From Lytechinus pictus (Eukaryota): a stretch of DNA of 64,000 bases. A program made the position numbers and the translations under genes. The notes below the pieces were generated by a model. That model saw only the letters and a list, made by a program, of their open reading frames with translations. It searched no databases and had not been told where the DNA came from. This document shows positions 1-49,254 of this stretch, piece by piece (position 1 is the stretch's first letter; each line of letters begins with the position of its first letter). Location: the NCBI RefSeq assembly GCF_037042905.1, contig NC_087245.1, forward strand, positions 26,848,001-26,912,000, in the 5' to 3' direction.

Positions 1-37
1 TGGCATACCGGAATCGCTATCATAATGTAGACAGATA

Positions 38-3478: not shown

Positions 3479-3683
3479 AACTGTGATCGACACCGTGTAA
3501 AAGAAGTTTTTTCTTGAAACACTGTGTAAGTCGACGGAGAATGCGGCGGAAAGAAGAGAGAGATGACGATAGGTCATACCCGTGAGTGTAATAGATAATA
3601 CTCGTGTATGTTGTTCTACGCGTTTTGTACACAGTACAACAACAGCAGGGTAGCCGCACCGCGGTGTCTGTATTAGTCTATGG

Positions 3684-5680: not shown

Positions 5681-5714
<34 letters not shown>

Positions 5715-6620: not shown

Positions 6621-8163
<1,543 letters not shown>

Positions 8164-8366
8164 CTGGCCTTCCAGTTGCAACGCATTTCAACCAACCTGG
8201 ACATTTCATCAACGATCTACAGGTATGCGTTGCCATCCCTTGCGACCGTGAGACGGATCGCAAACTCAAAGAAGAGAAGCTGATCTACAGTCTCGGGACC
8301 AAAGCTCGGGACCCTCGCACCCCACGGAATGAATGTGTCTTTCCGCGCCTTCCCAATGCCTGAGAC

Positions 8367-9552: not shown

Positions 9553-9770
9553 CCTGAGACCAAGTGAACTTTTCTTTCTTTACCGATGGATCGATAGACT
9601 CTTTTGCCGTTTTTACTCTACGTCATAATAGTTGCCTGGACTTTACTCATTACGTCACAATATCATCTAACAATGCACCTGTCGTCGCGTTAGTTATGTT
9701 GTTGCGCATTATATTTATTGCGCGTTGGTATCACCACCAAATGATGCAACCTGTTTTGGATTTAATAAAT

Positions 9771-9809
9771 TCATCCCTGAAGAAGGTCTATGACCGAAAA
9801 TTTGGAAGA
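9771..9809 (+). ncRNA. Minimal type I hammerhead ribozyme in the Penelope 3' end
   Basis: TCATCC-CTGAAGA-A-GGTC-TAT-GACC-GAA-AATT-T-GGAAGA: CUGANGA and GAAA cores, stem II, palindromic AATT stem III, imperfect stem I. Confidence 0.7.
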
Positions 9810-9843
9810 TTATGTCTCCTTACGGCGTTTCTATTAAGTCTTT

Positions 9844-9897
<54 letters not shown>

Positions 9898-12710
9898 ATA
9901 TATATATATATACATGTATATATATATTATATATACACATTTTCCATTATTCCTTTGAAGTTTTTAGCAAGACCCTTATAATAGTGACAACGATATGGAA
10001 CTAGACAAAGGGATCTGTTCTTTTAGATATTTGGTGTCACATAGATATCATTTTCTACATGCAAAGAGTCAGAAACTTATAATCCCTTTCTTTCCAACAG
10101 GTCATATTTCAAGAAATCGCATCTAGGTCAAGTGAACCAGATCAGACTATAGTGACGAAGGCTGTGTTCCACCAGGCAGGAAAACCATCATACCCCTCTG
10201 TCCAACAAGGTGGCTTTGTCGTCTTCCAGCCATCATATCAGTTCTGGATAATTATGAAGCAGTTGTAGAGAGCCTGGAGGAGATGTCAACATCCAGCACG
10301 TCGGACAGCGCAGCTAAGGCAAATGGACTGTTGGATAGATTTCAGAAAGGAGGTACTTTGCTGGCCCTGACCATGGCGGCTAATCCAATAGCAGTCCTTG
10401 AACAGCTTAAAAGTGCCTGTCAAGCCCAGTCTTCAAATGTATCTGGTAAATTTATGAATCTTTTCTGATACGCTACTAGCAGACAGGATTGCTGTGCCAA
10501 GTCTTTATTTAAACTACATCAAAAATATGTGTTATACTGGTTCATTTTAATTCTTTATCAAAGAACACAGCGTAATTTTGATGACACATTTGATAAAGAT
10601 ATTTATTTAATGTTTCATTTTTGCTTTTCAAGTATGATGGCAGCCTCAGAAATCTGCTTGGAGCAGCTGAAGTTGTGGAGGACTGACAAATACTTCCAGG
10701 ATGTGTTTCGAGGAGCTTCCGCCAAGATTGAGGCATATAGTCTCGATCCCCTAGATCTGCCGAGAAAGAGGAAATGCCCTCGGAAGCTGGGAGGCCAAGC
10801 AAGTGATTTCCATGACAGCAAACCTGAAGAGCTTTACCGACAGCAATACTTTCTTTTCCTTGACCACCTGATGAGGGAGATGGAAGAACGGTTTGATGTA
10901 GCGTCAAACAAAGACCTGGCAACTTATGTTGAGCTCGAGCGCGTTCTTGTGACTGGCAAGATTGAGGAGCACCAAGAGGCAATCATCGAACAGTATCCAG
11001 AATTGACAAAAGGTCCCCTCTCGTTCAGTCTCGTTACAGCTGCAGATGTTCAACCAAAACAGGAAAGGTAGCACTGTTTATGATGCCAAGATCGCTTTCC
11101 AGAAGATGCATTCGGAGGTGCGAGCCCTTTTCCCACAGGTCGAGGCTCTTCTGAGACTATTGTTGGTTTGTCCAGTCAGCTCAAGCACGTGTGAAAGGAG
11201 CTTTTCTGCTCTTCGACGACTGAAGTCATGGCTTCGGAGCTCCATGACTCAAACACGCCTCAACTGCGGATTTTCGGACATTATTGAGACTACCTGAAAC
11301 AGATGTTGTTCTATTTTACCCTTTTTCTTATTCATTCCCAGAAAATTCAAAGAAAAAGAAAAATACCTTGGCGTTTCTATAGAGTAGAGGCTAATCACTT
11401 CATTTATTTGCCTGGTTATACACACTTTACCGATGTATGTCATGGTAGTATTGATATATATTAAGTTCGGCATTCAGTAAACCTTTGAACAAGAAAATAT
11501 ACCAAAAGGAAGATGTGCACAAAACGAAAGTCACCCCTACTTGTATATCCAAATACCTTGACTTGAACGATAAGTTTTGGTCAATAATATTTTGCAGGAG
11601 AGCATTGATGTCCTCATTTCCTATCTGTGGAAATGAGGTGCCTATAGTCATGAAAAAGTGAGCCCATATCAAATGCAAAAATTTCACTTTTAAAAAGTCA
11701 TAATGGTCGTTTGGTGATCAGTAGCTCATATGTATGGTGCTTTTGTTGTATGCGGTCGGATGTAATTAATATTAAACATTTTATCATGTGACCCCATCAG
11801 ATACCTCTCATGAAAATATTGAGGTTCAGTGAGCTCAATATAATATGATCATATTTTAACAATTTTTTAATGAGTGAAATCAATTAATGGTTTCAGAAAG
11901 AATAATCATTCATTTCTCTCTAAAGCGTATCTTCGGATATGAACATCGGATTTTTTTTCCATGTTATTCTTGTAATTGTTATGGACTTGAAAAACTGAAC
12001 TTGATTGATTTTTTCTTATATTGGCGAAAAGAAATCTCTTTTGAGTTTGGAAAGGGATGACAGTTTTGCATTCTATATGAGCACACTCATGCGGTACGTA
12101 AATTTCATTTTAGCACATTATATTAGCTGATATTACACACTGATGGTTCAAGAAAATGTTGGAGAAATATCATAACATGACAGTTGAGTTTTGATTGTTT
12201 TTATGTTTGTTTTTGTTTCATGCACTTATAAAGCATTTAAAACATGTTAAAATCCAGGGTTAAAATCGTCTAAGGAATGACAGTAAGCCCGATGGCGCAC
12301 GAGAAGCCACACAGTTTGTAATTTGTGCAAGTCTTAATTTGTCCGAATCTGCATTTTATCATCATGCATTAAGAAGAAAAAAGATATTGCCAGTCGGGTT
12401 AGATTTAAGAGAGAAGTTGTATACATCATGCTCAATAAACAGATCACTTTGTACATGGTCCAGACAATTTTTTCTTTCGGATGAGTTTAGAATAGGCTTA
12501 CTTGTAACACAAATTGAATTTTCAAAAAAATTATATAAGTACAGTACATTGCAACAATGAAGGAATTTCCAAGAACACCATGCATATCAACCACTCCCAA
12601 ATGTCCTAACTTGTGATTTTAGTGGGGGGTAATGTTAAAAGATCCCCATCCACAAGAACATTTGTGTCAATCATCCCCCCCAACCAAGAATACCGATCGA
12701 CACCCATGAA

Positions 12711-14221
12711 CAATGGTGTAATGAGGCGACAATTTTGAGAGGGCCAGATATCGCGTATCGGGCAGAATTTATCTTTTTTTTTAAAGTTCCGAGCGAGCAA
12801 AAATTTTGACATTTTTAATACAAAAATCAAATTTTGTGGTATCCAGAGAATAATATATTTCAATCTTCTCTCTTACCATTCCTTTTTTTTATGGTCTGTA
12901 CGTCATTGTGAACAGGATTCTTTGCGGCAGTAGCGTGAAGAGTAAAAAAAAAAGAAAAAAAACAACAAGGGGCGCAGTATGGCGCCGATGTGCTAAAAAA
13001 GCTGCTTAATACAAGTCCTGAGCGAGCAAAGCGAGTAAGAAAATAATCACCTTTTCATGAGAATCTAACTTTGAGATATGTTTTGTCATTATATTCAAAA
13101 AAAAATCATTTCCTACACTTTTCCTTTGCTTTCCTTTCCTCCTTGTTTTTTGTTCTTGGTTGTAGAACTTTTTGGGGCCATGGCCCAACCCTACCATACT
13201 CATATACGACAGTACTATGCGGTTGGGGTCCGGGGCAGAGCCCCCGGAACTTTTTAATATCAAAGCCATTTAAACCTAGCAGATTGTCGTTATTTTTATT
13301 CAAATATCGAGGGTATATACAGAATATAGCTTTTACACAACACATTTATTCAACCCAGTTGCGTAATGACCAAATATTTTGAAGGGGCACAACATAGCAA
13401 TGTGGGAATATTTGTTAAAAGTCGCCAGCGAGCAAAGCGAGCTGGAAAAACAGATTGCCAATTGAAATTAAATTATAATTATGTGATAGATTTTTCCATT
13501 ATAATATTAAGTAAATAACACATTTCATTGTTTCCATTCATTTCATTATACGTTGTCTCCTATAATTTCTTTTATTATCTCTTGTGTGTGGAACCAAGAC
13601 CCCCCCACCCCCACGCCTGTACGCCAGTGATTGAACGTAAAGCTTAATGTAGGGAGGGTCCCTATAGGGGGAAGTTATGGAGCCATTTGAAGGTTATAGA
13701 TGAAGAGCCCCTACTGCGTAATTTTATTTGCATAAAATTTAGCAAGCTTATAGCACAATGTAGTATGTAGTCCATCTTTCTTCCCGCTCTTTATTTTCAA
13801 TCCTCGGCAGCCCGGTCGTGTTAAGTGTTTTTTATGTCTTGTCCCTTTTTTTCGTTTTCCAATTTAGCTTTTGACTAATTCCATTCTAACTTCATTTCCC
13901 GCTATTTGCAATTTTGTCATCTTTTAACTTATTTCTCATCATGCTATTGCATTACATATAGGCCTTTTTCGAGATGATTTGTTCTTTCTCAAATGTTCTT
14001 CTTTCGTTCCTTTTCCCGCTTTCCTTCCTTCCTTTTCCGTTAAATCTGTTTTTTTATCTTCTTTTTCTTTTCACTTTTCCCTTTCTCTTTCCTCCTTTCC
14101 TTTTCCCCTTTCCTTCCCCTTTCTTTCTCCCTCCCTTTTCTCCTTTCCCGTTTTTTTATTTTCCCGGTGAAATCTGCCAAGGGGGCAGCTTGCCCCCTGC
14201 CCCCCGCCTGTTACGCCACTG
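12711..14221. mobile_element. Composite/degraded hAT-like MITE fragments
   Basis: CA(A/G)TGG(T/C)GTAA-like ends (CAATGGTGTAA ... TTACGCCACTG), G/C runs and GCGAGC motifs; boundaries approximate. Confidence 0.35.
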
Positions 14222-14899
14222 TTCACGGTATAATAACAATAAATAACAGTCATTGCATGGGAGGGGCCGGGGAGGTGACAGTCATAAGCACAATATTAAA
14301 GGCTTGAAAATGATGGACGCCCCTCAAGTAAAGATCATGGCCCTGAATATATATCAATAAAAGTTCATATATGAAAATCACACAAAAAGTAGGACCAGAA
14401 GGAAAAAATATCAAGCATGTCACGAAACATATTAAAAAAATTCCAGTCTAATTATAATAATCAATCGTCGACAAATCAAAATTTTAAGTAACAATCCAGA
14501 AGTACTTTACAAGCCAAAATCAATACTAAGTAATACCATCTCACCTCCGCGTAACGACCATCAGCGCACCCTACCACTTCCCGTTTAACCCCTTTTAGGG
14601 GAGTTGGGCAGTATCCTGCAACTACATGTAAGTAAGTAAGTAATTAAGAAAGTAAGTAATCTACCATGCAGCAAGATGGCGAGTCTAATATTTTTAAAAA
14701 AATTATAATTATTTTGGCATTGCAAAATATGTTGAGCTGATAAGTGATTTGACCTTTAAATATAAAACTTAGTATCATCTTTATATTCGCACATTAAAAA
14801 AAATGGACCATTCACATACAGTTAAATAGACTGGGGGATACACAATACATATCATACAAGTGCAAATAGGCGGTGGTCCCAACGCCTGGGACCACCGCA

Positions 14900-17800
14900 C
14901 AAAAACAACAAAGGGAAAAGAAAAGAAACATAGAAAAGCAATACAGGTCTGTTCGTCTACATTACCCAAAATCTAATAGATTCCATTAAAAAAAAATCTA
15001 TACATAGTAGTGTCCCTATAAGCAATACACTTTTCTGTTTGGTACACTTGTTTTAATTTTCTGATAAACAAGTCAAAACAAGGAAGGATATTAATATATC
15101 TACACAGATATAAAGTTTTCTTTGCTACAATAAGGCAATGATTCAATAACACATCTTGCTTGTTTTTAATTCCGAATAAAATCTCTTCATCCTTTACTTG
15201 GATAATTTCTTTTTTAAATTTAGTATGCCACCATCTTAGAAATTCATTCCAAAAATCTCGAGCATGCGAACATTCTACCAACAGGTGTTCAATTGTTTCC
15301 TGTTCTTGTTTACAAAAAGAACACATCTCATCGTCTACAACTTTCATTCTCTTTAACTTTGCATTTACTAGTAGGCATCTTGTATTTATTTTATATTGAA
15401 ATATTCTTGTTCTTGTATCTGGAATAACTTTAAAAGGCGACTCATAAATAAAACTAAAATCATCTTCACTTATATCATACCTTGATCTCTAATATATTTC
15501 AGAAGTAGGGGTTTGGTATTTATTTTCTTTTAATATCATATTTATGATCTTGGTTGACAATTTTGATATAAACATTTTTATTACCAAAAACTATAAAAAT
15601 ATCTAACTTTTTAAACAAATGTCGCCTCGAAACAACGAGCTTTAACTGTCTGTGGAATAGCAGAAACAATTGAACGCCAAAGAAGATAGTTTTTAAAGCT
15701 AACAGTGACAGATCATCTGTAAATCCAAGACAACCCAAATAAGTTGCCGTTTCTGCAAAGTTTGTAAATGTTAGGATAGGTAAAATATGATTCGAAAAAC
15801 ATTGACAAATGTAAGATATTTACATTAACAATTAGAACGTGACTCTTCTTTTCCAAACTGTCACACGCGATATTTGAGGATAATACAATAGAAAATGTAA
15901 TCTCGGCTGGTATAAGAAAATCTTTGTATTGTATTATGCTGAACTGGGTTAGTAGACCTATTTGCGAGAGACATGCGAGACATAAATAGTATTAAAGAAA
16001 ATCGTCACGTGCAAATAATACACGTGCAAATCATTTTTTTTTTAAACGTTTTTATGTTTTTATTAAGTATAACCATCTCATACACATATTACAAAACAAG
16101 TGTACAGTATGGATAAGTTACATTTTGATAACAAAAATACATACAATAACAACAAAGGGAAAAGAAAAGAAACATAGAAAAGCAATGCAGGTCTGTTCGT
16201 CTACATTACCCAAAATCTAATAGATTCCATTAAAAAAAAATCTATACATAGTAGTGTCCCTATAAGCAATACACTTTTCTGTTTGGTACACTTGTTTTAA
16301 TTTACTGATAAACAAGTCAAAACAAGGAAGGATATTAATATATCTATACAGATATAAAGTTTTCTTTGCTACAATAAGGCAATGATTCAATAACACATCT
16401 TGCTTGTTTTTAATTCCGAATAAAATCTCTTCATCCTTTACTTGGATAATTTCTTTTTTAAATTTAGTATGCCACCATCTTAGAAATTCATTCCAAAAAT
16501 CTCGAGCATGCGAACATTCTACCAACAGGTGTTCAATTTTTTCCTGTTCTTGTTTACAAAAAGAACACATCTCATCGTCTACAACTTTCATTTTCTTTAA
16601 CTTTGCATTTACTAGTAGGCATCTTGTATTTATTTTATATTGAAATATTCTTGTTCTTGTATCTGGAATAACTTTAAAAGGCGACTCATAAATAAAACTA
16701 AAATCATCTTCACTTATATCATACCAGGGGCGGATCCAGCTTTCGCCAATAGGGGGGGGGGGGGCCGAAAAATATTTTCATCAACATTTTTCTCGATTGG
16801 CCGCTATAATCTGATTATTATTATTTTTTTTTTGGGGGGGGTTTCAGGGGGTAGTCCTAACTAGAGACTAAAGTTTTAAGTATATGTTAGTTTTTATTGT
16901 TATAAACAAGATAAGGTATCTCATGTGGTCTTAAAAACTCTTAATATATAATGCGAGCGCGAAGCGCGAGCTCAAATTCTTTGATATTTTATGTCCTTAG
17001 ACCTGACGATTCTGAGGAGATTTTATAATCATGAAAAAGATAAGTATCCAACTAAACAATGCGAGCGCGAAGCGCGAGCCGAAATTTTATCATAGTAACG
17101 TGAAAAGGGACTCAATTAGGAGTGTTTTTAGTGATTAATGAAGAGGATACAAGTATCATCAATTAAATAATGAGAGTGCGAAGCGCGAGCTCAAAATTTT
17201 TGATATTCCGACCTGAAAACTGGACAGTCTAAGCGCGTTTGTATTTAAATACAGAAAAAGCTGTGTGTGTCAAACAATTAAATGCGAGCGCGAAGCACAA
17301 GCTCAATTTTTTGATATACTGACATGACAAAGGAGCATTTTGACAAATTTTGGTAAGAATTTCCAAAGACGATAGGTAACTCACAAATCAAACAATGCGA
17401 GCGCGCAGCGCGAGCTGAAAATTTTGATATAAACAATTTGTGTAAAACAAACAAAATAATTAAAGCTTGATGTGCGAGCTAAAATATTGTGTGCAAATTG
17501 ATTTCAGATCTGGATATATAAGTGTCATTTAATCCTCTTGAATGGGATTCATTGGCACGGGCAATGCGAGCGCGAAGCGCGAGCGAAATTTTTTATATAA
17601 AGTTCTTTTTCCAATTCTTCCCCTCACCCTTTTCTTGTTTCCTTTCGGGGTCGGGCCGGCCGTTACGAGGTTGTAAATTACACATCCTGGGTATGATACC
17701 TCTTTCCTACTTTTCTTTAGTGTTTTTCCTATAGTACACTTTTTCTGCAGGTTGTCAAAAATAGGGGGGGGGGGCCGGGGCCGGCTCGGCCCCCTCCTGG

Positions 17801-18800
17801 ATCCGCGCCTGCATACCTTGATCTCCAATATATTTCAGAAGTAGGGGTTTGGTATTTATTTTCTTTTATGATCTTGGTTGACAATTTTGATATAAACATT
17901 TTTTTATTACCAAAAACTATAAAAATATCTAACTTTTTCAACAAATGTCGCCTCTCGAAACAACGAGCTTTAACTGTCTGTGGAATAGCAGAAACAATTG
18001 AACGCCAAAGAAGATAGTTTTTAAAGCTAACAGTGACAGATCATCTGTAAATCCAAGACAACCCAAATAAGTTGCCGTTTCTGCAAACTTTGTAAATGTT
18101 AGGATAGGTAAAATATGATTCGAAAAACATTGACAAATGTAAGATATTTACATCAAAAATTAGAACGTGACTCTTCTTTTCCAAACTGTCACACGCAATA
18201 TTTGAGGATAATACAATAGAAAATGTTATCTCGGCTGGTATAAGAAAATCTTTGTATTGTATTATGCTGAACTGGGATAGTAGACCTATTTGCGAGAGAC
18301 GTGCGAGACATAAATAGTATTAAAGAAAATCGTCACGTGCAGATATTACACGTGCAAATAATTTTTTTTAAACGTTTTTATGTTTTTATTTAGTATAACC
18401 ATCTCATACACATATTACAAAACAAGTGTACAGTATGGATAAGTTACATTTTGATAAAAAAAAATACATACAAAAACAACAAAGGGAAAAGAAAAGAAAC
18501 ATAGAAAAGCAATACAGGTCTGTTCGTCTACATCACCCAAAATCTAATAGATTCCATTAAAAAAAAATCTATACATTGACAAACGTACGATATTTACATT
18601 AAAAATTAGAACGTGACTCTTCTTTTCCAAACTGTCACACGCGATATTTGAGGATAATACAATAGAAAATGTAATCTCGACTGGTTTAAGCAAATCTTTG
18701 TATTGTATTATGCTAAACTGGGTTAGTAGACCTATTTGCGAGAGACATAACTAGTATTAAAGAAAATCGTCACGTGCAAATAATACACGTGCAAATCATG
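14900..18800 (-). repeat. Tandem amplification (~1244-bp unit, two copies plus a deleted third) of an L1/Tx1-type LINE 3' fragment and adjacent block
   Basis: ORFs 14973-15347 and 16217-16591 are near-identical and carry zf-RVT CSFC..ETIEHLLVEC..FW. Minus-strand AATAAA and poly(A) near 16035-16065 and 18362-18390. Confidence 0.85.
16725..17811. mobile_element. MITE with CAGGGGCGGATCCAG-type TIRs and internal GCGAGCGCGAAGCGCGAGC repeats
   Basis: 5-bp TSD CATAC (16720-16724, 17812-17816). The empty site is visible in the first tandem unit near 15476-15490. Confidence 0.85.
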
Positions 18801-18895
18801 ATAACTATGAATATGTGTCACACGCGATATTTCAGGATAATAAACGTAGAAATATCAATAATCTACCTTGTCTATACTGTGTTGGTAGGCCCCTG

Positions 18896-19052
18896 GGGCC
18901 CGTTTCATAAAGGACTTGCAACTGTTGAAACTTTGCCATAATGGCAACTACCATGGATACAGGGCTTAGCAGCCAATCATTATCAAGGTTTCCATGGTAG
19001 TTGCCATAATGACAAAGTTACAACAGTTGCAAGTCCTTTATGAAACAGTCCC
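18896..19052. mobile_element. Palindromic Harbinger-type MITE directly upstream of the P450
   Basis: ~65-bp inverted arms GGGCCCGTTTCATAAAGGACTTGCAAC...; TSD CTG; central AGCCAATC. Confidence 0.85.
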
Positions 19053-19237
19053 CTGAAGGTCATATGCGAGACATGAATAGATATATAATAGAAAATCGTC
19101 ACATGCAAATATCTGCATTACATACGCGAACAAAGAAGGATGGCTGTGACCTTTTTCAAACGTATAAAATGCATTATGTATGTGAATCTCGGCGCACTCT
19201 GAAAGCATCAGAGAAAGCTTGAGGTAGTGGATCGAGA

Positions 19238-22200
19238 ATGTCATTCAACGCGATGATGAAACTTCTTTGGCTGGTGATGGTGGTCATGATAATGACCACG
19301 AGCAGCAATGGGGGCAAAGTCAGACCTAAACCCATTAACGATCGGTCGGACGAGAACGATTCGGACGACAGCAGATCTGACGAGAGTGACGAAACCCAGC
19401 CCGATCAAAATCTTCCACCCGGTCCTTCTTTTCCTTCTCCTAGTTGGTTCCTTTTCCTGAAATTATTTTTGAAAGATCTTCCGCCAACTGTAAGTATTAT
19501 ATGATAACTTGATTGATTTTAGCATTATCTCTTTCTTTGATCCTTTCTAAACGAAGATTGCTTCATTAAAATGTACTTGATTCAAAGAAAGATTTTTTCA
19601 AGCTTTTTCTTAAACATCAAAATGTTTTAGCAGCTCTTAATCTGCCAAAGAGGAAAGTGCTGAAATCATTTTCTTCTATAATTTATATTAAAAGCTTTTT
19701 GTAATTCATTTCATTTCATATTCCTTAATTTTCTCCATTTTCAACACCAAATTAAATGCCAAAACAATAAGTAAATACAACGTTCAGGAAATGACTCTTG
19801 GATGGAGAAGTTATTAAAATGAACATTGAGAGGCGTGCCAGATAATGGCGAGAGTGAGAAGTATCTTTCCTGATAAGTAGTGTAGTTCTTATACAGGACT
19901 GTAAATCAGATGACTTGGAGTAGAAGAGAACTGTGATGAGTTGAGAAGGAGCGACTACGGTGACGGACAGCCAAGCTGCTCAGAACGCCGAGACGCCTCA
20001 TCGGACATCCACTCTCCGCCGACTCTTCTACTCTTCGTCGTTCACCTTCTCATTATTGTCAGGACTTCACCTACTCCTGTCATCTCTCTCTATACATTTT
20101 ATATAGACACCGGCATATGAGCAGCTCTTTCAGGTTGCTCAAAAGAACATGGAACTTGGACTTGATGGTGGGATTCTTCAACTCGACGTCGACTATATCG
20201 GAACAAAGATGGCATTCATCAACAACATTGATTACTTGAGAGAGGCATTTGAACAAGATATATTCTTAGATATGGACATCAAGGCCAGCTATGCCAATTT
20301 ACCGCTGCCGTTGGCTGGTACGTATAAATCTTAATAAAGAAACCTTTGTACACATAATGAGCAGAACAACATTGATTCACATTAACCTTTAAAAATTTCG
20401 TATTAAGTGGGTGCTCATTAAATAGAATAAAATTGATTTTCATCACATAATAGACCGTGCTATTCCGGTGTTCGAGCTGATGATGCCATACCCCATTATC
20501 ATCTTATTTTGTTATATGAAACCATACACTCTTAAAAATGTTGGGCAACATATACTGTCCACAAAATAATTGGTTAAAACTTTATCAAATTCTGGGTAGT
20601 TTTAAACCAATGATGTGTGCTTTTGGCGAAAACTACACAGTATTGGTTGAAAACTACCAAGAGTTTGATAATTTTTTAACCAATTGTTGTGTGAACAGTA
20701 TGTTGCCCAACATTTTAAGAGTGTAGACGGGTCCAAGTTTTGGCAAGGGGGGGGGGGGGCGTGCGGGTCGAGTGTTTTTGCCTGTTTTGCCTACAAAAAT
20801 CATCACAAAAACATGATTATATATCACGTCGGAAAATCGAAGAGGCGCCCTGTGACGTTTTATCAAACAATACAATATTACTTGGATTAAGGAAGATGAA
20901 AGGACTTTTTATTAGAAAAAAGCATATATATAAAGAAAGTGCGATCGAAAGCGCGACCCAGTTTTCTTTCTTTTATAGCCTAGAAACGGAGTGATTGAAT
21001 ATAATTATCTGGTATCATGATGACGATCTATTTCGCGGTTGGAGAATGGCTGATATCACTGACCGCAAGGAAAGTCTGTAGTGATTCAGACCTGAGGTAA
21101 AGACTAAATAAGCTGGAAGGGGGTTACGAAATTATTTTGTTACTGCCCATATATCTGCAATTATAACTGTACAAAAATTTGGTTTAAAAATATGCAAATA
21201 AAAGTAACATTACTTGAAAGAAAGGAGACTATCGCATGTGCCGTTGCTGAAAAAGAAGTACCGATTAGATTTCACCGTCGCCGTTGTTGAAATCAATAGA
21301 TGCCGATTAGTTTTCATCGTTGAAATTAATAGACCCCAATTAGCTTTAACGGGTGCTGGTATTAACATTCATTAGGCGCCAATTAGTTTTAGCCGGCGTC
21401 AGTGTTGAAATTAAGTAGCGCCGATAAGTATTCACCGGCACCGTTACTAAAACCAATAGACGCTGATTAGTTTTCTCTAGTGAAATCAATAGGCACCAAT
21501 TAGCTTTAACCGGCGCCGGTATTGAAATCATTATGCGCCAATTAGTTTTAATCGGCGTTGGTGTTGAAATTGCGTAGCGCCGATATATTCGCCGGCCCCC
21601 AACGTTAGAATCAAGAGGCTTTTTTTTCACCAGCGAAGTTAATGCGACATTTTTTTTAATCACTTCGCTGACGCTTTCTATAACGCAGAGAATCCTTTAT
21701 CAAAAGCCCTTCAAGCAGCCTTTGTCAAAAATCGGATAATCAAAACAGCAGTGTCGTCCTGGATTCTGGACAAACGACATAATTATTTGCATATTTTTTC
21801 TGGTCTGCATCTTAAGACGATGTGCTTTCCCGGTCCACGAACTGTCGACAGTGACCACTGATTTCATGGGCATATTCTATAGATTATGAACGTTGCAAAA
21901 AGCGTCGGCGAAGTGGATGCTAAAATACGCCATCGAAATCAATAGACGACGATTAGTTTTCACCGGCACAAGGGCGCAATAGGGCCAATTAATTTAAACC
22001 GGCGCGCCGGTTTCGTCGCCGGTGTTGGAATTGAGTAGCGCCGATATGTATTCAACGGCGCCGGTATAGAATCAAGACGCTTTGATTGGTTTTTATCGGC
22101 GGCGGTTGAGAGGCAAACAGCACCGATATTTCTTGAACTGGTGCCGACGTTAAGTGGCGCTAATTATTCTTGATCGACGCCGATTTAAAGTCAGGCAGCG

Positions 22201-25200
22201 CCGTTTTTTTTTCTTGATCGGCGCTGATTGATAACCAGTTGGCGCTGATTACTATTGATTGGCACCGGCTATGACACAGGAAGCCCTAAATATTCTTAAC
22301 CAGCGACGGTTTAGAACCAGAAAAAAAAAGAACAAAGAAAACATATTAGGACGATTCAATCTTTATTTTTTTAGCAGTGTCGAAATAGCCCCCCCCCCCC
22401 TCCTGGATCTGCCAATGGAAATTGTTTTCCCTTTCTATGTAAAGAATTAATTTTCTTCATTTTTATGATTGAAACATGCATGGACTGTTCACATGGGGGC
22501 GTCACTTGGACATTTTGATGGAGAGTGAAGACCAAGATTTCGTTGCGATGGTGCCTACAGATATGTTTCACGCCCCTCCCTCCCGCGTGCATGACATTGA
22601 ATTTCAAACAATACGTCTGTGGATCGGTATGCCTCTTATATATTTTTCTGTGAAACTTTCTACAATGAGGAGAGAAATTTCTTATTTGAGAGCGAGCCAT
22701 GGATATCGGCATATCATGTAGGTAAACAAAAAACAGGAGTTATTTATTTTGTAAAAATTTCTTTGCAAATCAAAAAAATACATGACAAAATTTATATTGA
22801 TACCTGGCTTCGTCAAAATTGTATACACTGTCATTAATTTTTACAAGCGAGCGAGCGAGCGATGCAAGAAAAGGGTATACATTTACAGTGTCGCAAGATC
22901 AAATACAGCAGGGACAATGGTAAAGTTCGACCATCTCGCTCATCTTTATATTATTTTTTACTTTCCAAAACTATACTTAAGCAAAGGCAGATCCAGGGGG
23001 CCCGAGGGCCCCTGGCCCCCCTATTGGCGGAGCAAGAAAAAAAGAAAAAGGGGGAAAAGATCAGATGGCAAGATCTTGTCATCTGATCATCTCTCCCACA
23101 GGATGTAGACATGACGAGATCCGAGATCTTGCCATCTGATAATCTCTCCTAACATGCCTAAACGATATAGATATGACGAGTCCAAGATCTTATCATCTGA
23201 TCATCTTTCACACATGATGTAGACATGACGAGATCCAAGATCTTGTCATCTGATCCTCTCTCCCACAGGATGTAGACATGACGAGATCCAAGATCTTGTC
23301 ATCTGATCATCTCTCACACGGGATTTATGCATGGCGAGATCTAAGATCTTGTCATCTGATTATCTCCCCCATGGGATGTATACATGACGAGATCCAAAGG
23401 CGCCGCTCAAAAAAAAAAAAAAAAAAAAGAAAGAAAAGGCGCCACTTGAAAAAATGAAAATAAAGGAAAGTAAAGAAAAGGCGCCAATTAAAAAAATTAT
23501 ACACTGATATAATATTAGCAACAGTAAAGGAAAGACTATCCCCCCAAAAAACACAATCATATCATCTCCCTTATCTTTTCTTTTAACTACCCTTTTCCCA
23601 ACAACTTCGCCGGTTGAAAATAATCAGCAGTGCGCTGCTTGCATATAACTGGCGCCAATCAAGAATGATCAGCGCCACCTAAATCTGAATTGGCGCCGGA
23701 CAAGAATAATCAGCGCCATTTGGTTATAAATCGGCGCCAGTCAAGAAAAATGGGCACTGCCAGAGTCTTAACCGTCGCCGATTAAAAATAATCAGCTCCA
23801 CCTAAATCTAAATCGGCGCCGGGCAAGAATAATCGGCGCCATCTGGTTATAAATCGGCGCCGGTAAAGAAAATCGGCGCTGCCTGAGTTCTTAACCGGCG
23901 CCGATCAAGGATAATCAGCGCCATCTATATCTAAATCGGGGCTGGTCAAGAATAATCAGCGCCATCTGGTTATAAATCGGCGCTGCCTGAGTCTTAACCG
24001 GCGCCGATCAAGAATAATCAGCTCCACCTTAATCTAAATCGGCGCCGGACAAGAATAATCAGCACCACCTGGTTAAAAATCGGCGCCAGTCAAAAATAAT
24101 CGGCGCCTCCTGGTTCTAAATCGGCGCCAGTCGATTATGAATTGTCCGCTGCCTGAATCTTACGTGACGTCGGTAAAAATAATCAGCACTTACTTGTTCT
24201 AAATCGGCGCCGGTCAAGACAAATCGGCACTGCCTTTGTCTTAACCGGCGCCACCTAAATCTAGATCGGCGCCGGTCAAGAATGATCAGCGGCACCTGGT
24301 TATACATTTTATTTTGAATGGTCATAACGAATAACAAAGCTAATCGCATGCCCTTACAGAGTGGACTGAGTGGGGCGGGGCAGTTGCCCACAGATGTCAT
24401 GAAATCTTTAATTTGTTATTTAAAAAATCCCAGAATCATACAAAAGTGTAGAGCAAATCCTTTAATTCTGATCTTATTTTCCAATGCTTTAATAAGAAAA
24501 GGGTCAGTCACTTTTCCTTTTTACACATTCCACATTGTGCCACCTCTATGGCCTTTATTGTAAGACAGCTACTATCATGACTATAGTGTTTTATGAAGAT
24601 GATTCGATATTTTAGTCCAAAACTTTGCTAAAACCCGTTGCTAATACCGGGAGTGTATAATTACGCAAACAGACGTATATTCGTTAGACCTTAAACCACT
24701 AAATATCATTATCAATGTATAAATACAGTTTGTCAATACCTTTGTTTTAACGTTTAAATGTTTACGCCACAAAATTTGATTTATTTTCATCTTTCATTAA
24801 GTTAAATATTATTCATCTGATCACTCAGGAAGAAGTTAAAAAAAATAACGATACTTGTAAAACTGGAGAACTATTTCCAAAGCTCTGTCTTGAAGGATCT
24901 CTTTCTGAATTCAGGTCATAAACATTATATCCAGTTTCATCAAAGTAATTAGATAAAAATTACTCATCATTACAAATTGCATTATATTTAGTGAAAAGCA
25001 TCAATATATATATATATATAAATACCAAATCTGTATATAGGCCTGTACATCATGTACATGAAAATTGAATGATAATATATAAACCTGGATTGGTGACGTA
25101 TTCCAAATGATTCATGATGTAGTATCATTGTATAAACAGAGGCGTCGATCCTGGGGGGGGGGGGGGGCAGGGGGGCGATCGCCCCACCAATGAAAATATT

Positions 25201-28200
25201 GATGGGGCAAACATATCCTTTTGCCCCCCCCCCCAATGATTCCGCATGTGCAAAAATAAAATAAGATGGTAATGTTACACAGAAATCAGCAAGCGAGATT
25301 GAGCTACACAACTCGTTCTTTATCTAAAATCATGCTCAAATCCGCTTTTCAGATTGGAATATAAAAATTTTAAGCTCGCGCTTCGCGCTCGCATCATTTC
25401 TGTAGCAAAACCCTATACTTTCCATGATTAAATAGGTGAATAGAATGTCCCGTTTTCAGTTCTTAACCTTAAAAGAACACCCGCTTCGATTTGCAATAAT
25501 CTTTTGTTGGATATAATCCTGTTCTTTATTAAAAACTTCCATTAAACTGTCATTTTTTTTTCAGATCGAAATATCAAAATTTTAAGCTCGCGCTTCGCGC
25601 TCGCATCTATTGTTTTTTTAGATACCCATCTTAATCATTGGTACCAAAAATGCTTAGAATATCAAGCTTTCTGGTCAGAATATAAAGAAATTTCAGCTCG
25701 CCCTCGGCACTCGCATTATCTGTGTAGTGAGATATGTATCCTCCTCATGAGTTACTACAAACAGTCCTAAACAGGCACCTTTTTCCTGTTTTCAGGTCAG
25801 TATACTAAAAAATTTCAGCTCGCGCTCGCATCAATTTGTTGGTGAGATATGTGTCTCTATCTCATGAGTCTTATAAATAAATAAATATATATATATATAT
25901 GCACATGTGTGTGTGCGTGTTTGTGTGTGAGTTTGTTTGTTTTGTGTGATCGAGCGCCTTTGGAAAGTTGATTCATGATTTTGCCCCCCCCCCCCCCATT
26001 CTGAAAAAAGGACCGACGCCCCTGTGTATATATATATATAGTAAAAAAAAATTGTATCTCAGTTAAAATAACAAAAGTATTGGCCTCATCGCAATAAAAG
26101 GGTTAGTACACGAGATTTTGAAATCGCACATAACATGCATAATTTGTGTTACTTTTTGCTTGTTTCTTTCTTTAATAAGTTTTTCAATCTCTCTCTATAT
26201 ATATTTTAGAAAGATTATATGTTTGAATTGATGTATATTTTCTGTTATAATGAGATATGTTTAAGTGGACTTCAGGGAATGGTCGTACGCAGCAAGGGGG
26301 AGGGGGGCAAATTCCCGATCAGCTGAGTTGTGAAAACACTTTTTTTCCTTAACATTTCATGAAAACTATGAAAAATGTGCAAATGTGAGATGTGCACCAA
26401 ATACTTTTATTACACTTGTAAAAAAAATAATCACCCCATTGAGCAGCTCGGTCCGTTTACTCTATCGTTTCTATTTTACTTTTTTAAATAAGTTCGAGGC
26501 TTGCTCCCCCCCCCCCGGAAATATTATCTGCGTGTGGTCGTGCAAAATGGCATGACTGGAAATCATACATTTTGAAAAGAGCATTTGACAGGGTCAGACT
26601 TTACCCCTTTTTCAACATTTTCTTTTATGGCGACGGTTAAGTGCAAAAATATGTGCGCCGCTCGGCAGTGCGCCCCCCCCCCCCCCCTTTCGCCAAAAGC
26701 TGGATCCGCCTATGCTTGGGTCTGGCCGTGCCGGGAATTGAACCCCGGACTTTCATTGTTTTGTCTGGCGCATTAATATTACTCGGCCACGGCACCTCTC
26801 CAATTAAGGGAACGAGTGTTGGTTGAAGTGTAAATTATAAAATCAAGCAATAAAGATCAAATCTAAAACCATACATTTCTATCATATTTTTGCTCCACAG
26901 ATCTTTTTGATTTGGTCACCTCACTTTTCAATCAACAAAACGAGCAACAAACTCCTTTTTTTGTATATTCTCGACAAGGTCCATTTGTCAATATTTGTCA
27001 AATGCACTGATACGATGAGAAAATGATTCTGTTCATCTTTACTTAATTTTATTGAAACGGAGAACAGTTTCAAATCAGATCCGGGATGATTCTTCAGGTT
27101 GTCTGAACTGGCGGGGAATCTACAGTGCGTTGGCGCCAAGTGGTAACTTTGATTTCCCGCCAGTTCCGCTCCCTCACTTAACATCGACTATACAGTACTC
27201 ATTTGACAGCTTAATTCAGATTTGTGTACAACGGTCAGAGCATAAAACCGCCTCCACCGCACGTAGGGCAAAATCATTCCCTTGTCATGTCTAGAATATC
27301 CATATCCTGTTAAATTAACATTTCAACTCTTTTTCGATACAGGTACTATTCGAAACAATGGATCGGCTCATAAAGAAATCAAAGACTTTGTCATGCTCAC
27401 CATCAAGAACCCTGACTTCATGAAGGAAATTGTAGCTCCACGGATCGACGAGGCGATTCTAGTCTTGATAGATAAGTTGAAGGAAAGCACTGGCGATGTT
27501 ACGGTCATCGAATCGCTGCTAGGTTACAGCCAAGACATCTTTCAACGCATGGCCTTTGATGAACCTGGCAGTTATGATTTCTCACCAGGGTCTTTTGGAT
27601 CCAACCTCAATGCTATAACGTACCAATTGTTTGGACCAATCTTATTTACTCCCAGACCAGGCGATACATCCGAGGTGAGGATTTCTTCTTTTCAGTTTGT
27701 GACCAATCGACAGTATGGGTGTGCGGCCCCTAAGACCCACCTTTGACGCCTTGCCAGTCGTTCATAAGCATATCATTTCACGCTTTTGATTGGACAACGC
27801 GTTCTCCCCGGGTCCTTTATTTCCAAAACACCCCATTGTTAGAGAGCGGTCAGTTATTAAAGGTCAAGTCCACCCCAGAAAAATGTTGATTTGAATCAAT
27901 AGAGAAAAATCAAACTAGCACAACACCGAACATTTCATCGAAATCGGATGTAAAGAAAGTTATGACAGTTAGAAGTTTCGATTATTTTTCACAAAATGTT
28001 ACTTACTCATTATTTCTTTTGTGTTTTATTGTTTGAATTAAACAATATTTCAGTTTTACAGATTTGACAATAATGACCAACTTGACTGAACCACAATATG
28101 TTAAACAATGTTAAACAATATTAGTTCCACATCAGATCATTGAGGAATAAAACTTTATTTCCCGAGGAGAAAATTAAAATATTTCGTGTAATAAAATATA

Positions 28201-30659
28201 AAAGAAATAGTAAGATAGTTATGTCATCGCTCCCCTCATTGACCAGGATGTGCATATAACTGTTTTCTGTAATTAAGATAAACTTGAAAATGTCATAACT
28301 TGTTTATTTTACATCCGATTATGATAAAAAAAAATCAAGTGTTTTGCTTGTTGGATTTTTCTCTTTTTATTCAAATCAACTTTTTGTTCGGGTGGACTTG
28401 TCCTTTAACTGCTCATAAGCCACTTATTTCATACGGTTTTATAATTTTTGGCCACACATCTATAGGCCTACTGTTTCCTAATCCCAGTGCCTCCCCTCCT
28501 ACGAGGTGGTCGTATTCTCAATTCGTCTAACGTCACCATGGTTAAACCCATTTGGTTTGCTATCAATTACAATGATTAGGCCTAGTAGGTCTGATTGCCG
28601 TTTGATGCGTCCAACCATTGTAGGTCCAATTAGGTCTAATACTCACTTGATTTGTCATTTATTCTAATGCCAATATAGTCTTATTTCAATTTAGTGTACT
28701 TATTACTTTGTACTTGTAGACCAATCCTCGTTTTACTTATAACTTTCCCTCGCTCCTTTTTAAAGGGGGAGTGAACTGTGTGGTCTCTCATTGACTGTGT
28801 GTTATATATGTATAGTCTTAAAATATACGTTTTCAGATATCTACTAATACTACAGAGAATAAATTGACCCATATTGTATTTGTATAGAGAAACTAAAACG
28901 TTTTGAGAGGAAAAGTAATTGTTTTGCTACTTGGTAACATAATTATTGCGGTATAAATGTATTGAGTAGTTAATTAGCATGTTATAATTCAAGTGGGTCT
29001 ATACTAGTATACTACATTAGCATTATGGGTCAGGCCAGGTATGAGTAGTTGAGGACTCGAGATGGCACTATTGGTGCGTATCTGCTTTAAGATCGAAAAT
29101 GGTATCAGTGCAATAAAATTTTACAATTTGCTATCTGATGCATAATATAGTACCAAAAATAAACTTAAAGCTAAAATGATGAAATGAGGTTTATCTTGTT
29201 TGGCTCCAGATGTTTTAAAAGTCACTTTTTTATTTTTACCATTCTGTTAATTTCAGCTGAGAGGCGTGGCATCATACATTCAAGATCGTACATCAGCGGC
29301 TGCAAGCAACACAGATTCTCTTGCAGGACGGCTAAAAGATTACCTAGCTAACCTTGACTCCCCTATTGCACAGCCAGAGGACGCTTGGCGGTTTATGTTA
29401 GACATATTTTTGGCAGGCAGGACCATCGTTGCTGAAGGACTCGCTTATATTATTTACCGCCTTGCTGAAGATCAGGACCTTCAGAACAGGGTAATTTTTT
29501 TTTCGATACGTTTTTATAGGCCTGATCCCATTTGACCATGGAGGTAGCATGATTTGACTAAAAATTTAGATGATGGTTCAGCGGTAGAACGCCCGCCTCA
29601 GAACGGGAGGTCGCGGGTTCGATATATTTTTTAAACAGAAAAAAAGTTTTATTAATGATCCGTCAACACCGCTAAATGCTAAAATAGTAAATACAAGCAA
29701 AGAAATACAAACGTTTTGTCTAACTTCTTTCTATTATTATTTTTCCCACTTTTTCCCCCTCTCTGTTTTTATATATTTATCCCTCAGATTCGTCAGGAAA
29801 TCAATGAACTTGATTCTGACGTCACTTACGAAGATCGCTTGAAGATTCCACGCACGATGTCTTTCCTCTACGAGATTCTCCGCGCCCACACATTGATTCC
29901 ATTTGGACTGACACATGTGGCGACCGCTGATGGGAAAATAGGTGGCTTCGATATAAAGAAGAACACCAGGATCATTCCAAACCTGTATGCCATACATAAC
30001 AACCCGGACGATTGGAAAAACCCTGACGTCTTCAATGCCACGAGGTTTCTGCGATGGAATGGCGAAGAACTGACGTTTGACCCGATATCTGTCAATGCCA
30101 GTAGAGTGACAGCATTTTCTGCGGGTGAGTCTTTTTCTAAAGAGACAGGTAATCCACAGTTATACTTGCGTGGAAACAAAATAATCCACAGTAACTGAAA
30201 ATGTGTATTGCATTATTTATGTGTAACTCGTATATCACATTCTGTCTCAAGTGCTTTACCTGGCTTTTAGTCAATACGATCTCTGCAACAGGGATCACTC
30301 TGACAACATTGATAAATTGGGCTGATCCCAAATATTTTTATTATTGTTTTATCAAAGGATGAAGCCGAATTTTCAATGACAACCATACAGCTTTACCCAA
30401 ACCAGATTTCTAATAATTTGTGTTTAATTTCACTCCTATTTCACTCTCTCTTGTCCAACCCTTTGATATCCATGCAGGGAGAAGATCCTGTCCAGGAGAG
30501 CTGATCCCCCGGATGACTTTCCTCAAAACTACCCTAAGCCTGCTCCGACATTTCCGAATTACTCTGTCGTCGGAAATAAAATTCGATATCGAAGAAAATT
30601 TCAGTGCGTTCTTCTTGAAGTCACGGGAATATCAAGCTGTCTTTGAGCCCCTTTTGTGA
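19238..30659 (+). CDS. Cytochrome P450, probably clan 2, atypical, ~515 aa; exons 19238-19489, 20107-20317, 27343-27674, 29257-29490, 29788-30124, 30478-30659
   Basis: All introns GT-AG with compatible phases (0,1,0,0,1) and a stop-free 1548-nt ORF. PPGP hinge, DIFLAG I-helix, EILR (ExxR), heme motif FSAGRRSCPG across exons 5/6. Confidence 0.92.
20527..20723. mobile_element. Short MITE with CACTC...GAGTG termini flanked by TA (CMC/EnSpm-like)
   Basis: TIR CACTCTTAAAAATGTTGGGCAACAT / ATGTTGCCCAACATTTTAAGAGTG. Confidence 0.75.
21235..24300. repeat. Two degenerate ~40-bp GGCGCC-module arrays in opposite orientation (~21235-22270 and ~23600-24300)
   Basis: Right unit ~AAATCGGCGCCGGTCAAGAATAATCAGCGCCATCTGGTTAT; reverse-complement-related units on the left. 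Confidence 0.7.
23059..23397. repeat. 53-bp minisatellite, ~6 copies
   Basis: Unit GATCCAAGATCTTGTCATCTGATCATCTCTCCCACAGGATGTAGACATGACGA (e.g. starts at 23232 and 23285). Confidence 0.85.
25137..26024. mobile_element. hAT-type MITE (family with 48715-49936 and 51859-52750)
   Basis: TIR CAGAGGCGTCGATCC / GGACCGACGCCCCTG. Near-perfect 8-bp TSD TGTATAAA/TGTATATA. Confidence 0.8.
26718..26795 (-). mobile_element. tRNA-derived SINE head
   Basis: Minus strand: A-box-like TGGCCGAGTAA, B box GGTTCAATTCC, GTGCCG...CGGCAC pairing. Confidence 0.55.
27861..28404. mobile_element. TTAA-target (Kolobok-like) MITE
   Basis: TTAA-AGGTCAAGTCCACCC ... GGGTGGACTTGTCCT-TTAA. Confidence 0.8.
29572..29622 (+). 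mobile_element. tRNA-derived SINE fragment
   Basis: TGGTTCAGCGGTAGA (A box) ... GGGTTCGAT (partial B box). Confidence 0.55.
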
Positions 30660-30704: not shown

Positions 30705-33015
30705 TAATGGAAAGTTCTATGTAGTCATACCTATGTTACACAGATTATAGTCTAGTTGCGTTGTCAAGATTTAACCATGATTTTTCTGAATGGCTTTTGA
30801 CAAATTATATTCACTTATATGCCTGGGAGTTGTTTTTTAATGAAGGCTTTCAGCATTTCGTAAAGATTTTTTCCAGGAAAATTTTGGCCATTAAAGGAAG
30901 TTTCTGAGGAGAATGACAAGCAAGTAAAAATAATAAAGAATGATGAACTAGAAAACTGTAGCACACATGTTTTTGTTGCCATATATATGTGGAATTGTTA
31001 AGACAGTGTGTACAATGAATTTCACTGATATTGCGATTTTCCTATATAGAAAATTATAAGACGTGCAAACGATATGATCACATTTTTAACCAAATTAAAA
31101 GTTAAAAGATATACATGCTTGCTATTTTGTTATCAGTTTCTAATGCGTAATTATAAATCCATCTTAGGTCTTTAAAATTAAAATCGATACATTGAAATAG
31201 TATCTTACAGTGTGGCCTTGTTGAACAAAAAGATGTTCTATATTCCCATTTATATATGCATTTTATCTTCAGAAATTTTGTAAATGAACTCCTGGGCCCC
31301 ATTTCATAAAAGTTACAGTCACGTCCATAAAATCATCAATTTTAATTGGCTATTCGAGGATGTTACCATGGTAGTGAACTGGTAGTGCATAGGGGCCCTG
31401 AAGTGAAAAATACCTAACCCAAATTAAAGGCGGGTTTGGGGGAGTTTGCCTCTCCCCTTTTCTTATTGGCAGTGAAAATAAAAACGAGAGAAAGAATTTA
31501 AAAAACAGAAGAAAGTGAAGAAAAAGAAGAAGAAGAAGGAAGGGGGGGGATAGGATTTTAAAAAAGACTATAAAGAAGGGGGCAAATGATACTGCCATTT
31601 ATAACACTTCAATTGAGTATTGTAATGAATAATGTTCCGGTTGAAATTTACTATTGTTATGAGTGTAATTGTGTTTTTTGTAAATGAAATAAAAGAAAAT
31701 TTTCATGTTCACGAAAGAATTGATTCATATACCCTTACATTTAATATACTGAGGAATTACCTCAATCATTAAGATCTATTCATCAACATTTTATCAATAT
31801 AGCAATGGCGGTGGATCCAGGAGGCCGAGGCGGCCGTCCCAAATAAGTTGCCGTTTCTGTAAACTTTGTGAATTTTAGGATAGGGAAAATATAATCTGTA
31901 AGAAAAATGACAAACATATGATATTTGCATTGAAAATTAAGAACGTGACTCTTCTTTTACAAACTGTCACACGCGACATTTGAGGATAATACAGGTACTG
32001 TAATCTCGGCTGGTTTAAGGACAACAATTTCTTGTAGTATGCTGAACTGGGTTGGTAGACCTATAGGCAAGATACATGCGAGACATCCATGACTATGACC
32101 TCTAAAAAAATATTAAATCACGATAAAACGTGACTTTTTTTTTACTAATGGAAAGTTCTATGTAGTTATACCTATGTTACACATTTTATAGTCTAGTTAC
32201 GTTGTCAAGATCTAACCATGATTTTTCTAAATGAATTTCGATTATATGCCTGGGATTTGTTTCTTTTTAAATGAAGGCTTTCAGCATTCCTTAAAGATTC
32301 TCTTTTATGGAGATTTTGGCCATTATAGGAGTTTCTGAGGAGAATGACATAATAAAAAATGATAAACTAGAAAACTACAACACGCAGGTTTTGTTAATAA
32401 AGTCTATGAAATTGTTCGAACAGTTGTGTTCAATGTAGTTCATATTACGATATACATGTATAGACAATTCCAAGACGTAAAAACGGTATAATCAAATTTC
32501 TAATTAAGAATTAAAAAAAAGGCTTGCTATTTTGTTATCAGTTTTCAATATGTGATTGTAAATCCATTTCAGCCTTCAAAGTAAAATAGATACATTGAAA
32601 TAATGTCTTACAGTGTGGTTTTATTTCTATCCTTTGTTGAATAAAAAAAGGTTCTATATTTGGAAAATGAATTCCCATGCAGGGCCCCCATTGCATAAAA
32701 GTTATAACTTCCATGAAATCGTTGATTCTGATTGGCTGTCCGAGGCTGTTGTCAAGGTAGTGAACTCATGCAATGGGGCCCTGAAAGAAGAAAATTGACC
32801 GAACCCAGATTTAGGGCCGATGGGGGGGGGGGGGGCGAACTTCCCGATCTTTTCTTATTGGCGGCGCAAATAAGAACAAGAAAATAATAGAAAAGGCAGA
32901 AGAAAGTGAAGAAGGATAAGAAGAAGAGGAGGAGGAAAAAGAAGAAAAGAAGGGCAAAAACGAAAAGAGAATACAAAGGATACAGAAAATTGAGAAGGAG
33001 GCAAATGATACAGCC
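30705..33015 (+). repeat. Diverged direct duplication of the P450 3' flank (30705-31596 and 32146-33015), with a copy of the P450 upstream block between them (31838-32087)
   Basis: Both copies start TAATGGAAAGTTCTATGTAGT and stay colinear to GGCAAATGATAC. 31838-32087 matches 15734-15983. Confidence 0.85.

Positions 33016-48832: not shown

Positions 48833-48870
<38 letters not shown>

Positions 48871-49204: not shown

Positions 49205-49254
<50 letters not shown>

Follow-up and report, generated by a model that had tools for sequence, protein, structure and literature searches.

The window, that is, the whole 64,000-nt (64-kb) stretch of Lytechinus pictus DNA analyzed here, contained only one P450-like gene when it was searched by tblastn with the XP_063955362.1 protein. 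The gene lies on the + strand at positions 19238–30659 and consists of six exons; all of its introns have GT-AG ends, and the frame is open over 515 aa (Table 1). The spliced model showed 0 differences from RefSeq XP_063955362.1 (designated P0003 in our alignments), which is annotated as "cytochrome P450 2A5-like" of L. pictus.

Gene structure and transcript evidence

Exon 1 had been taken as coding in an earlier sequence-only reading, and the segment 19238–19489 does encode 84 aa with no stop and a GT donor at its end. The anatomy given for this exon was also borne out, but the quoted start was not: the first ATG is at 19238 and adds six residues (MSFNAM) upstream. An in-frame TGA occurs six codons 5′ of this ATG, and no strong pyrimidine-rich acceptor was found in 19170–19420, where the best candidate scored 0.53 against 0.63–0.79 at the real acceptors. 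This upstream stop, the TATAAAA element, and the lack of a strong acceptor nearby make exon 1 the probable first exon of the gene. An in-frame 45-nt microexon (27098–27142) was considered and dropped, as its acceptor was weak (0.53), it does not occur in RefSeq, and its inclusion would make the B-C region longer. An exon missing from the model within intron 3 was ruled out by contig spacing.

Table 1. Features of the P450 gene (positions within the window)
Feature	Position	Strand	Remarks
TATA-like box TATAAAA	19163..19169	+	75 nt upstream of ATG
Exon 1, aa 1–84	19238..19489	+	Leader, acidic spacer, PPGP, hydrophobic helix 68–77
Predicted signal peptide, aa 1–25	19238..19312	+	(−3,−1) rule and flank charges; core 19262–19294
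Spacer G26–L59, predicted disordered	19313..19414	+	pLDDT <50 at 27–41 and 43–50
PPGP hinge, aa 60–63	19415..19426	+	
Exon 2, aa 85–155	20107..20317	+	Met140 (20272–20274) at near-invariant B-C loop Arg
Exon 3, aa 155–265	27343..27674	+	C helix HKEIK, sequon N160, shortened F-G region
Exon 4, aa 266–343	29257..29490	+	I helix AGRTI (29413–29427); possible second acceptor 29264
Exon 5, aa 344–456	29788..30124	+	E372/R375, His386, FNATRF (30031–30048), N426, N446
Exon 6, aa 456–515 and stop	30478..30659	+	Cys460 (30489–30491), Pro466 for Ala, N496

RNA support came from 4 runs of 24, the reads being swamped by intron repeats. Contig 11 of run X2 (1038 nt), which derives from a relative, joins exons 3 to 6, with coverage starting at 27425. 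Its exon 4–5 and 5–6 joints agree with the model; the exon 3–4 spacing is 278 against 285, that is, 7 nt short, so that the contig is frame-shifted at this joint. Splicing to the alternative acceptor (29264) would account for this shortfall, and so would a deletion of 7 nt. Two contigs of run X1 align with no mismatch to portions of exons 5 and 6. On exon 1, the stranded run X19 gave a bin depth of 1.43 in the expected direction (an estimated ~4 reads), and run X22 contained almost no reads. Neither the exon 1–2 joint nor the exon 2–3 joint was found among the joints listed (311 further joints fall outside this list), and read depth was very low in the two raw RNA runs that were mapped. Exons 1 and 2 are missing from two other gene models, P0002 of L. 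variegatus and the older P0004 of L. pictus, and exon 1 is known from one species only, L. pictus. Runs X15–X18 contained 46–48% of the words, a value near the exonic share of 0.44–0.56.

N-terminal leader and P450 domain

In order, the leader consists of MSFNAMMK, an 11-residue hydrophobic core (L9–M19), polar TTSSNGG, the spacer G26–L59, and PPGP beginning at residue 60; the short core followed by small or polar residues that had been read from the sequence is indeed present. The segment fits the description of a signal peptide, with Lys8, an h-region within 7–15 aa (L9–M19), and a polar c-region with (−3,−1) sites; this assignment is rule-based only and takes its definition from the accessible part of PMC2139883. 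By the (−3,−1) rule, candidate cleavage positions follow T20, S22, S23, or G25. A second membrane-spanning segment is absent, the eight most hydrophobic 19-mers all falling within residues 1–26. As the available text of PMC2139883 reports, short cores promote C-terminal translocation, and cleaved signals have cores of 7–15 residues. Human reverse anchors average ~25 aa according to the section available from PMC13220792, although most of these derive from GPCRs, and rabbit CYP2C2 given two N-terminal basic residues was translocated as a whole to the lumen and glycosylated (PMC2115505, accessible portion).

The leader was compared with those of 49 other full-length P450s, 4 of which belong to the gene's own subfamily (45 non-family relatives); in total, 50 of 163 proteins, this one included, passed a filter for 460–560 aa, an initial Met, and a PPGP-like hinge. 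The linker from core to PPGP is 40 aa long, against a median of 10 and a maximum of 33 in the 49 relatives, and its net charge is −6 against a minimum of −1. The domain has a net charge of −15 and a pI of 4.94, the lowest value among the relatives being 5.22 (paralog P0014). The difference in flank charge over 30/40 residues is −5/−8, where the 45 non-family relatives span −2 to +8/−2 to +10; over 15 residues it is +1 (+3 after the core, +2 before) and lies within the −1 to +8 of the 45 relatives. The core length of 11 is also within the relatives' range (6/45 non-family rows score 10–11 on this crude measure), and the 19-residue insertion sum was equally poor in 11/49. Compared with a canonical anchor, the linker is neither short nor basic, yet the core length and the near-flank charge are in the normal range. 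The anchors of the gene's own subfamily are 23–25 aa long, and the core here has therefore shrunk by half. In the predicted structure, residues 3–22 form a single 20-aa helix.

The spacer is 34 aa long, as had been claimed, but "mostly acidic" proved too strong a description: it has 11 D/E and 5 K/R among its 34 residues, and the first nine residues are basic. Its three SDE motifs (S37, S47, and S50) were confirmed, and S-x-E was enriched over shuffles of the spacer (P=0.001). The Ser codons differ among the three motifs, and Tandem Repeats Finder detected no DNA tandem repeat in the spacer region; together, these observations hint that the motifs reflect selection on the spacer peptide. The spacer may resemble the acidic segment of osteopontin; the Pfam search of exon 1 returned one subthreshold match (YxzE, E 0.036) and no family of the osteopontin type. 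S-x-E is the consensus of the secretory kinase FAM20C and had been put forward as a sign of a secretory location. However, sites of the cytosolic kinase CK2 resemble S-x-E in acidic runs, so the motif gives no location.

All five sequons that had been counted are present (N40, N160, N426, N446, and N496), as is FNATRF in place of PERF, where the NAT sequon stems from a P-to-A change. Their number does not serve as a marker of secretion, as 3.25 are expected by chance (P=0.22; 20,000 shuffles), and at least four sequons in the domain also occur in 6/49 relatives. Sequons at the same four domain positions were found in 0/65 background rows. The suggested check of their conservation gave a divided result: P0002 keeps all four domain sequons, which says little because of its 92% identity, but the fragment P0033, the nearest outside relative, has Asp (DAT) at N426. 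The protein has no cysteine other than the heme ligand and therefore no disulfides.

The remainder of the protein has the clan-2 P450 fold (Pfam PF00067, E 3e-49 for the protein and 2.9e-24 for the p450 match on exon 5). The structure model, built from a 70-row alignment in place of an earlier 13-row model of pLDDT 61, had a pLDDT of 83.9 and a pTM of 0.84. It matched the fold of CYP21A2 (Z 38.2, rmsd 2.5 Å, 413 aa aligned) and also that of CYP2D6 (Z 38), and the best sequence matches were to clan 2 (CYP2R1, E 3e-21). CYP5, CYP8, and CYP74 were absent among the fold matches listed, which excludes nothing, and the ESM Atlas gave generic P450 clusters only, with nothing usable for residues 1–62. 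The heme-thiolate motif FxxGxRxCxG is found at F453–G462 with Cys460, and the E-R-R triad is formed by the EXXR residues E372/R375 and the meander R429. Cys460, Arg458, His386, EXXR, and R429 are retained in both L. pictus and L. variegatus.

The I-helix pattern [AG]-G-x-[DE]-T is not kept: the helix reads A-G-R-T-I, and Thr321-Ile322 replaces the acid-Thr pair. Position 322 is Ile in L. pictus and Asn in L. variegatus, with T/S in 66/68 other rows. The B-C loop Arg, present in 65/68 other rows, is Met140; WxxxR of the C helix is HKEIK (H164, K168), with Q168 in L. variegatus; and Pro is changed to Ala at 427 and Ala to Pro at 466 in the L helix. In total, 9/36 near-invariant columns are broken, against a background median of 2 and maximum of 7 and 5–7 in the subfamily, the columns having been defined on the same background rows that were used for this comparison. 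The F-G segment has 41 aa against a median of 55 (~14 aa short; 2/65 rows are as short), and the stretch from E to I has 93 against 116. In microsomal P450s, the F′-G′ helices are the second membrane contact. Among the conserved basic columns, 15/25 are kept (median 19), so the reductase face is not clearly lost; the basic residues K165, K176, R457, and R467 are retained. The loss of basic residues was rejected as evidence for translocation on this count, since Diadema keeps only 11.

Ile345 of thromboxane synthase and Asn287 of prostacyclin synthase occupy the Thr position according to the accessible text of PMC13049297, and both enzymes cleave an endoperoxide without a reductase (PMC13049297 and PMC9779611, available parts). 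I322/N322 was placed by the clan-2 alignment, and the positions in the two synthases were taken from PMC13049297 and not directly aligned. That CYP5A1, CYP8A1, and the CYP74 allene oxide synthase carry Ile or Asn in or close to the position of the I-helix Thr and cleave peroxides self-sufficiently (PMC13049297, in part) is an analogy only: these enzymes belong to other clans, are not among the best matches listed, and were outside the trees computed here, and thromboxane synthase keeps the acid before its Ile.

An echinoid subfamily

In an exhaustive search with P0002, ordinary P450s were outscored by three relatives of a single domain, namely Diadema P0010 (with P0158 and P0159), the L. variegatus paralog P0014, and the fragment P0033; the remaining top rows were fused gene models. 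The subfamily formed one clade in FastTree (support 100, 71 rows) and in IQ-TREE (100/99, 14 rows, long branches flagged), and two motifs were shared by 5/5 family rows and 0/65 others. The Diadema "CYP2U1-like" proteins XP_071502906.1 and XP_072167351.1 and the L. variegatus "CYP2J4-like" protein XP_041465979.1 share this clade and both motifs with the gene at ~29–30% identity. A short leader that looks cleavable is, within the subfamily, peculiar to this gene. In the Diadema relatives, the anchor is 23 aa long with the usual polarity, and both the acid-Thr pair and WxxxR are present. In the paralog P0014, a 25-aa anchor is flanked by charges of +3 on its N-terminal and −3 on its C-terminal side (difference −6, against −1 to +8 in 45 relatives); judged by these residues, this is a type II (reversed) distribution. 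P0014 also lacks the I-helix acid and has a pI of 5.2 and five sequons. Odd N-termini and odd I helices therefore coincide in the same two genes, this one and P0014, with an n of only 2. In the maximum-likelihood tree, with long branches flagged, the partner of P0014 was the canonical Diadema protein (support 96/95) and not this gene, so the anchor inversion is not shown as a single event.

The fragment P0033, with 53% identity, indicates a lineage older than the species pair. L. variegatus P0002 has an uninterrupted frame of 361 colinear aa (92% identity). P0003 and P0002 differ at 29/360 positions, many of them among I, L, V, M, and F; K168Q and I322N separate the sister species, and most of the other changes are conservative. 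Protein searches found no full-length ortholog outside Lytechinus. In the word-indexed protein searches P0002 was the sole match, and one of these searches missed members of our own alignment, so their blanks are weak. A rough pN/pS of 0.34–0.61 was obtained from the 49 mismatches of the X2 contig, after a deduction for overhang and UTR, its amino-acid changes being assumed to be those of P0002; P against neutrality was 0.0003–0.09, depending on the assumption. By this rough measure, the gene appears constrained but fast-evolving.

Topology and chemistry of the encoded protein

Dependence on the reductase confines the microsomal P450s of animals to the cytosolic side of the ER. Like the clan-2 microsomal enzymes CYP2R1, CYP2D6, CYP2B4, CYP1B1, CYP17A1, and CYP21A2, which were its best matches, the protein has PPGP, EXXR, and the heme loop; unlike them, it combines an 11-aa core with a 40-aa acidic linker and a pI of 4.9, lacks the acid-alcohol pair, the B-C Arg, and WxxxR, and has a shorter F-G region, at ~20% identity. 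The description of a translocated enzyme as very unusual for an animal P450 was fair, though CYP2W1 and the predicted secreted tick P450s are precedents. Human CYP2W1, also of clan 2, is described as having a reversed orientation that places it in the ER lumen, and ~10% of it as reaching the cell membrane (PMC13211710, a secondary account). Its topology was tested experimentally; that of this gene product is predicted from sequence. CYP2W1 remains membrane-bound. Tick saliva P450s in TickSialoFam 2.0 are predicted to have a signal peptide but no additional membrane helix, and reductase-free peroxide chemistry or lipid scavenging has been proposed for them, an idea labeled untested in the source itself (PMC9779611, accessible portion). 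Unlike this gene, they keep [AG]-G-x-[ED]-T, and the same portion describes no acidic spacer. In the literature searched, which lacked most subscription papers and proteome tables, we found no secreted echinoderm P450, none of four accessions, and no proteomic record of the protein.

The translocation that the sequence-only reading had proposed is favored by the length and charge of the linker, the pI, the F-G region, the polarity of P0014, and the lost acid-Thr pair, but not by the sequons, S-x-E, or the near-flank charge of +1. Taken together, these features make entry into the secretory pathway somewhat probable. Given translocation, peroxide chemistry would, by analogy, be fairly probable rather than mere binding. 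We tentatively prefer, as a candidate that still falls short of being probable as a whole, the explanation that the anchor became a cleaved signal peptide and that the product is a secreted P450 using peroxides without a reductase. The 11-residue core after Lys8 would insert so that its C-terminal end is translocated, with cleavage by signal peptidase at S22, S23, or G25. The acidic disordered spacer would then become the new N-terminus, which may carry phosphates and may hold the protein on a Ca2+-rich matrix, and the shortened F-G region would weaken membrane dipping, making the domain soluble. Without NADPH-P450 reductase, the ferric heme would act on a pre-oxidized substrate, such as a fatty-acid hydroperoxide, an endoperoxide, or H2O2, in a chemistry modeled on thromboxane synthase, prostacyclin synthase, and CYP74. 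As a translocated domain would be out of the reductase's reach, the I-helix change would make sense. However, thromboxane and prostacyclin synthases are ordinary ER-anchored enzymes, and the loss of Thr therefore does not imply a lumenal site; moreover, because positions 168 and 322 vary between sister species, a lack of constraint fits as well as new chemistry. In echinoderm eggs, lipid hydroperoxides are formed, as are allene oxides and extracellular H2O2.

A protein of normal topology is rather unlikely on this evidence. Residues 3–22 would then be a weak, uncleaved reverse signal-anchor, with the domain held in the cytosol by the basic stretch and the spacer serving as a cytosolic tether, in a divergent ER P450, perhaps an isomerase like thromboxane synthase. 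The unbroken helix of the model, the 15-residue charge difference and core length within the normal range, the retained basic residues K165, K176, R457, and R467, the chance-level sequons, and the single Cys all suit such a protein; against it, a linker so long or so acidic occurs in 0/49 relatives, the core is followed by polar TTSSNGG with (−3,−1) sites, the subfamily anchors are twice as long, and the F-G region is shortened.

A secreted, non-catalytic binder of heme or lipid, a carrier or scavenger whose phosphorylated acidic tail binds calcium or matrix, would explain the 9/36 broken columns, including the B-C Arg and the L-helix Ala to Pro, and the presence of K168Q and I322N between sister species amid mostly conservative changes; the scavenger role proposed for the predicted tick salivary P450s (PMC9779611, available text) offers an analogy. 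It is nevertheless unlikely, as Cys460, R458, His386, EXXR, and R429 persist in both species, and both Ile and Asn occur at the I-helix position in peroxide-cleaving P450s. A decaying duplicate, with erosion under way in the anchor and the catalytic residues and translocation, if it occurs, a by-product, would account for the very low read depth, the frame-shifted exon 3–4 joint of X2 contig 11, the 2/3 database models without exons 1 and 2, the high pN/pS, and the failure to find a full-length ortholog outside Lytechinus. This we regard as quite unlikely, given the six open exons with GT-AG ends, the open and colinear L. variegatus model, a pN/pS below 1, a confident fold, and a lineage that, from the 53% identity of P0033, predates the species pair.

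An extension of the preferred explanation to the whole group appears doubtful. An echinoid-specific subfamily would have abandoned the cytosolic side of the ER and exchanged NADPH/O2 monooxygenation for peroxide-driven catalysis, with P0014 as a type II lumenal protein and this gene product as a soluble secreted glycophosphoprotein. The latter would work, on a P450 scaffold, as a heme-thiolate peroxygenase or as an oxylipin isomerase, corresponding in animals to the peroxygenases that fungi secrete.

If secretion were true, the gene would provide a proven case of an animal P450 that is secreted; the precedents known from the search are the membrane-bound lumenal CYP2W1 and the tick predictions. 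L. pictus itself serves as a laboratory model. A subfamily with canonical, type II-like, and signal-peptide-like forms would be a natural series in which topology and electron source change together, and a soluble, reductase-free eukaryotic P450 would be of interest to biocatalysis. Apart from the tick database, the papers found on secreted or extracellular P450 concern trees and their fungi.

Hydrophobic segment after the hinge and features of related P450s

Directly C-terminal to the PPGP hinge of the P450, residues 68–79 form a helix of unusual hydrophobicity, a possible site of binding to a membrane or to a lipid surface, and the hinge-to-beta1 region spans 46 aa versus a median of 32 aa. 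Among the background clan-2 P450s, Thr or Ser was missing at the I-helix alcohol position in only 2 of 65 sequences (P0041, Haliotis asinina XP_067683550.1, and P0135). The L. variegatus paralog P0014 (XP_041465979.1) has a 25-aa anchor flanked by a type II charge distribution, an I helix without the acid, a pI of 5.2, and five sequons; this protein is a second candidate for a lumenal P450.

Splicing and repeats around the P450 gene

At the start of exon 4, two AG acceptors lie in tandem, 7 nt apart; a contig from the RNA run X2 is consistent with the distal acceptor, the use of which shifts the frame. An in-frame 45-nt stretch of intron 2, bounded by AG and GT, was considered as a possible microexon and is unsupported. 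By eye, intron 2 also contains arrays of degenerate GGCGCC-rich repeats, which run in both orientations, as well as an array whose units measure about 60 bp. Near-copies of a roughly 300-bp segment, likewise seen by eye, occur twice upstream of the P450 gene and also downstream, and may be the trace of a duplication or insertion that put the gene there. Frames within the transposon debris were judged by eye to be reverse-transcriptase-like and hAT-like.

Neighboring Methyltransf_FA gene

The product of the large neighboring gene is probably a secreted repeat protein.

Features in the window
Feature	Position	Strand	Remark
Transposon debris	1–18000; 40950–57600		
DDE_Tnp_4 transposase	26–676		within debris of 1–18000
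Roughly 300-bp near-copies	18000–18900; 31780–32100		
Hydrophobic helix	19439–19474		
Intron 2 repeat arrays	21300–24300; 23050–23400		
45-nt stretch	27098–27142		
Tandem acceptors	29257/29264		
Large multi-exon gene	about 34988–64000	+	first exon hydrophobic, signal-like by eye
Methyltransf_FA (PF12248)	36884–37306	+	Pfam; in large gene
Methyltransf_FA (PF12248), middle copy	39653–39985	+	under Pfam's cut-off
Methyltransf_FA (PF12248)	63222–63554	+	Pfam; in large gene
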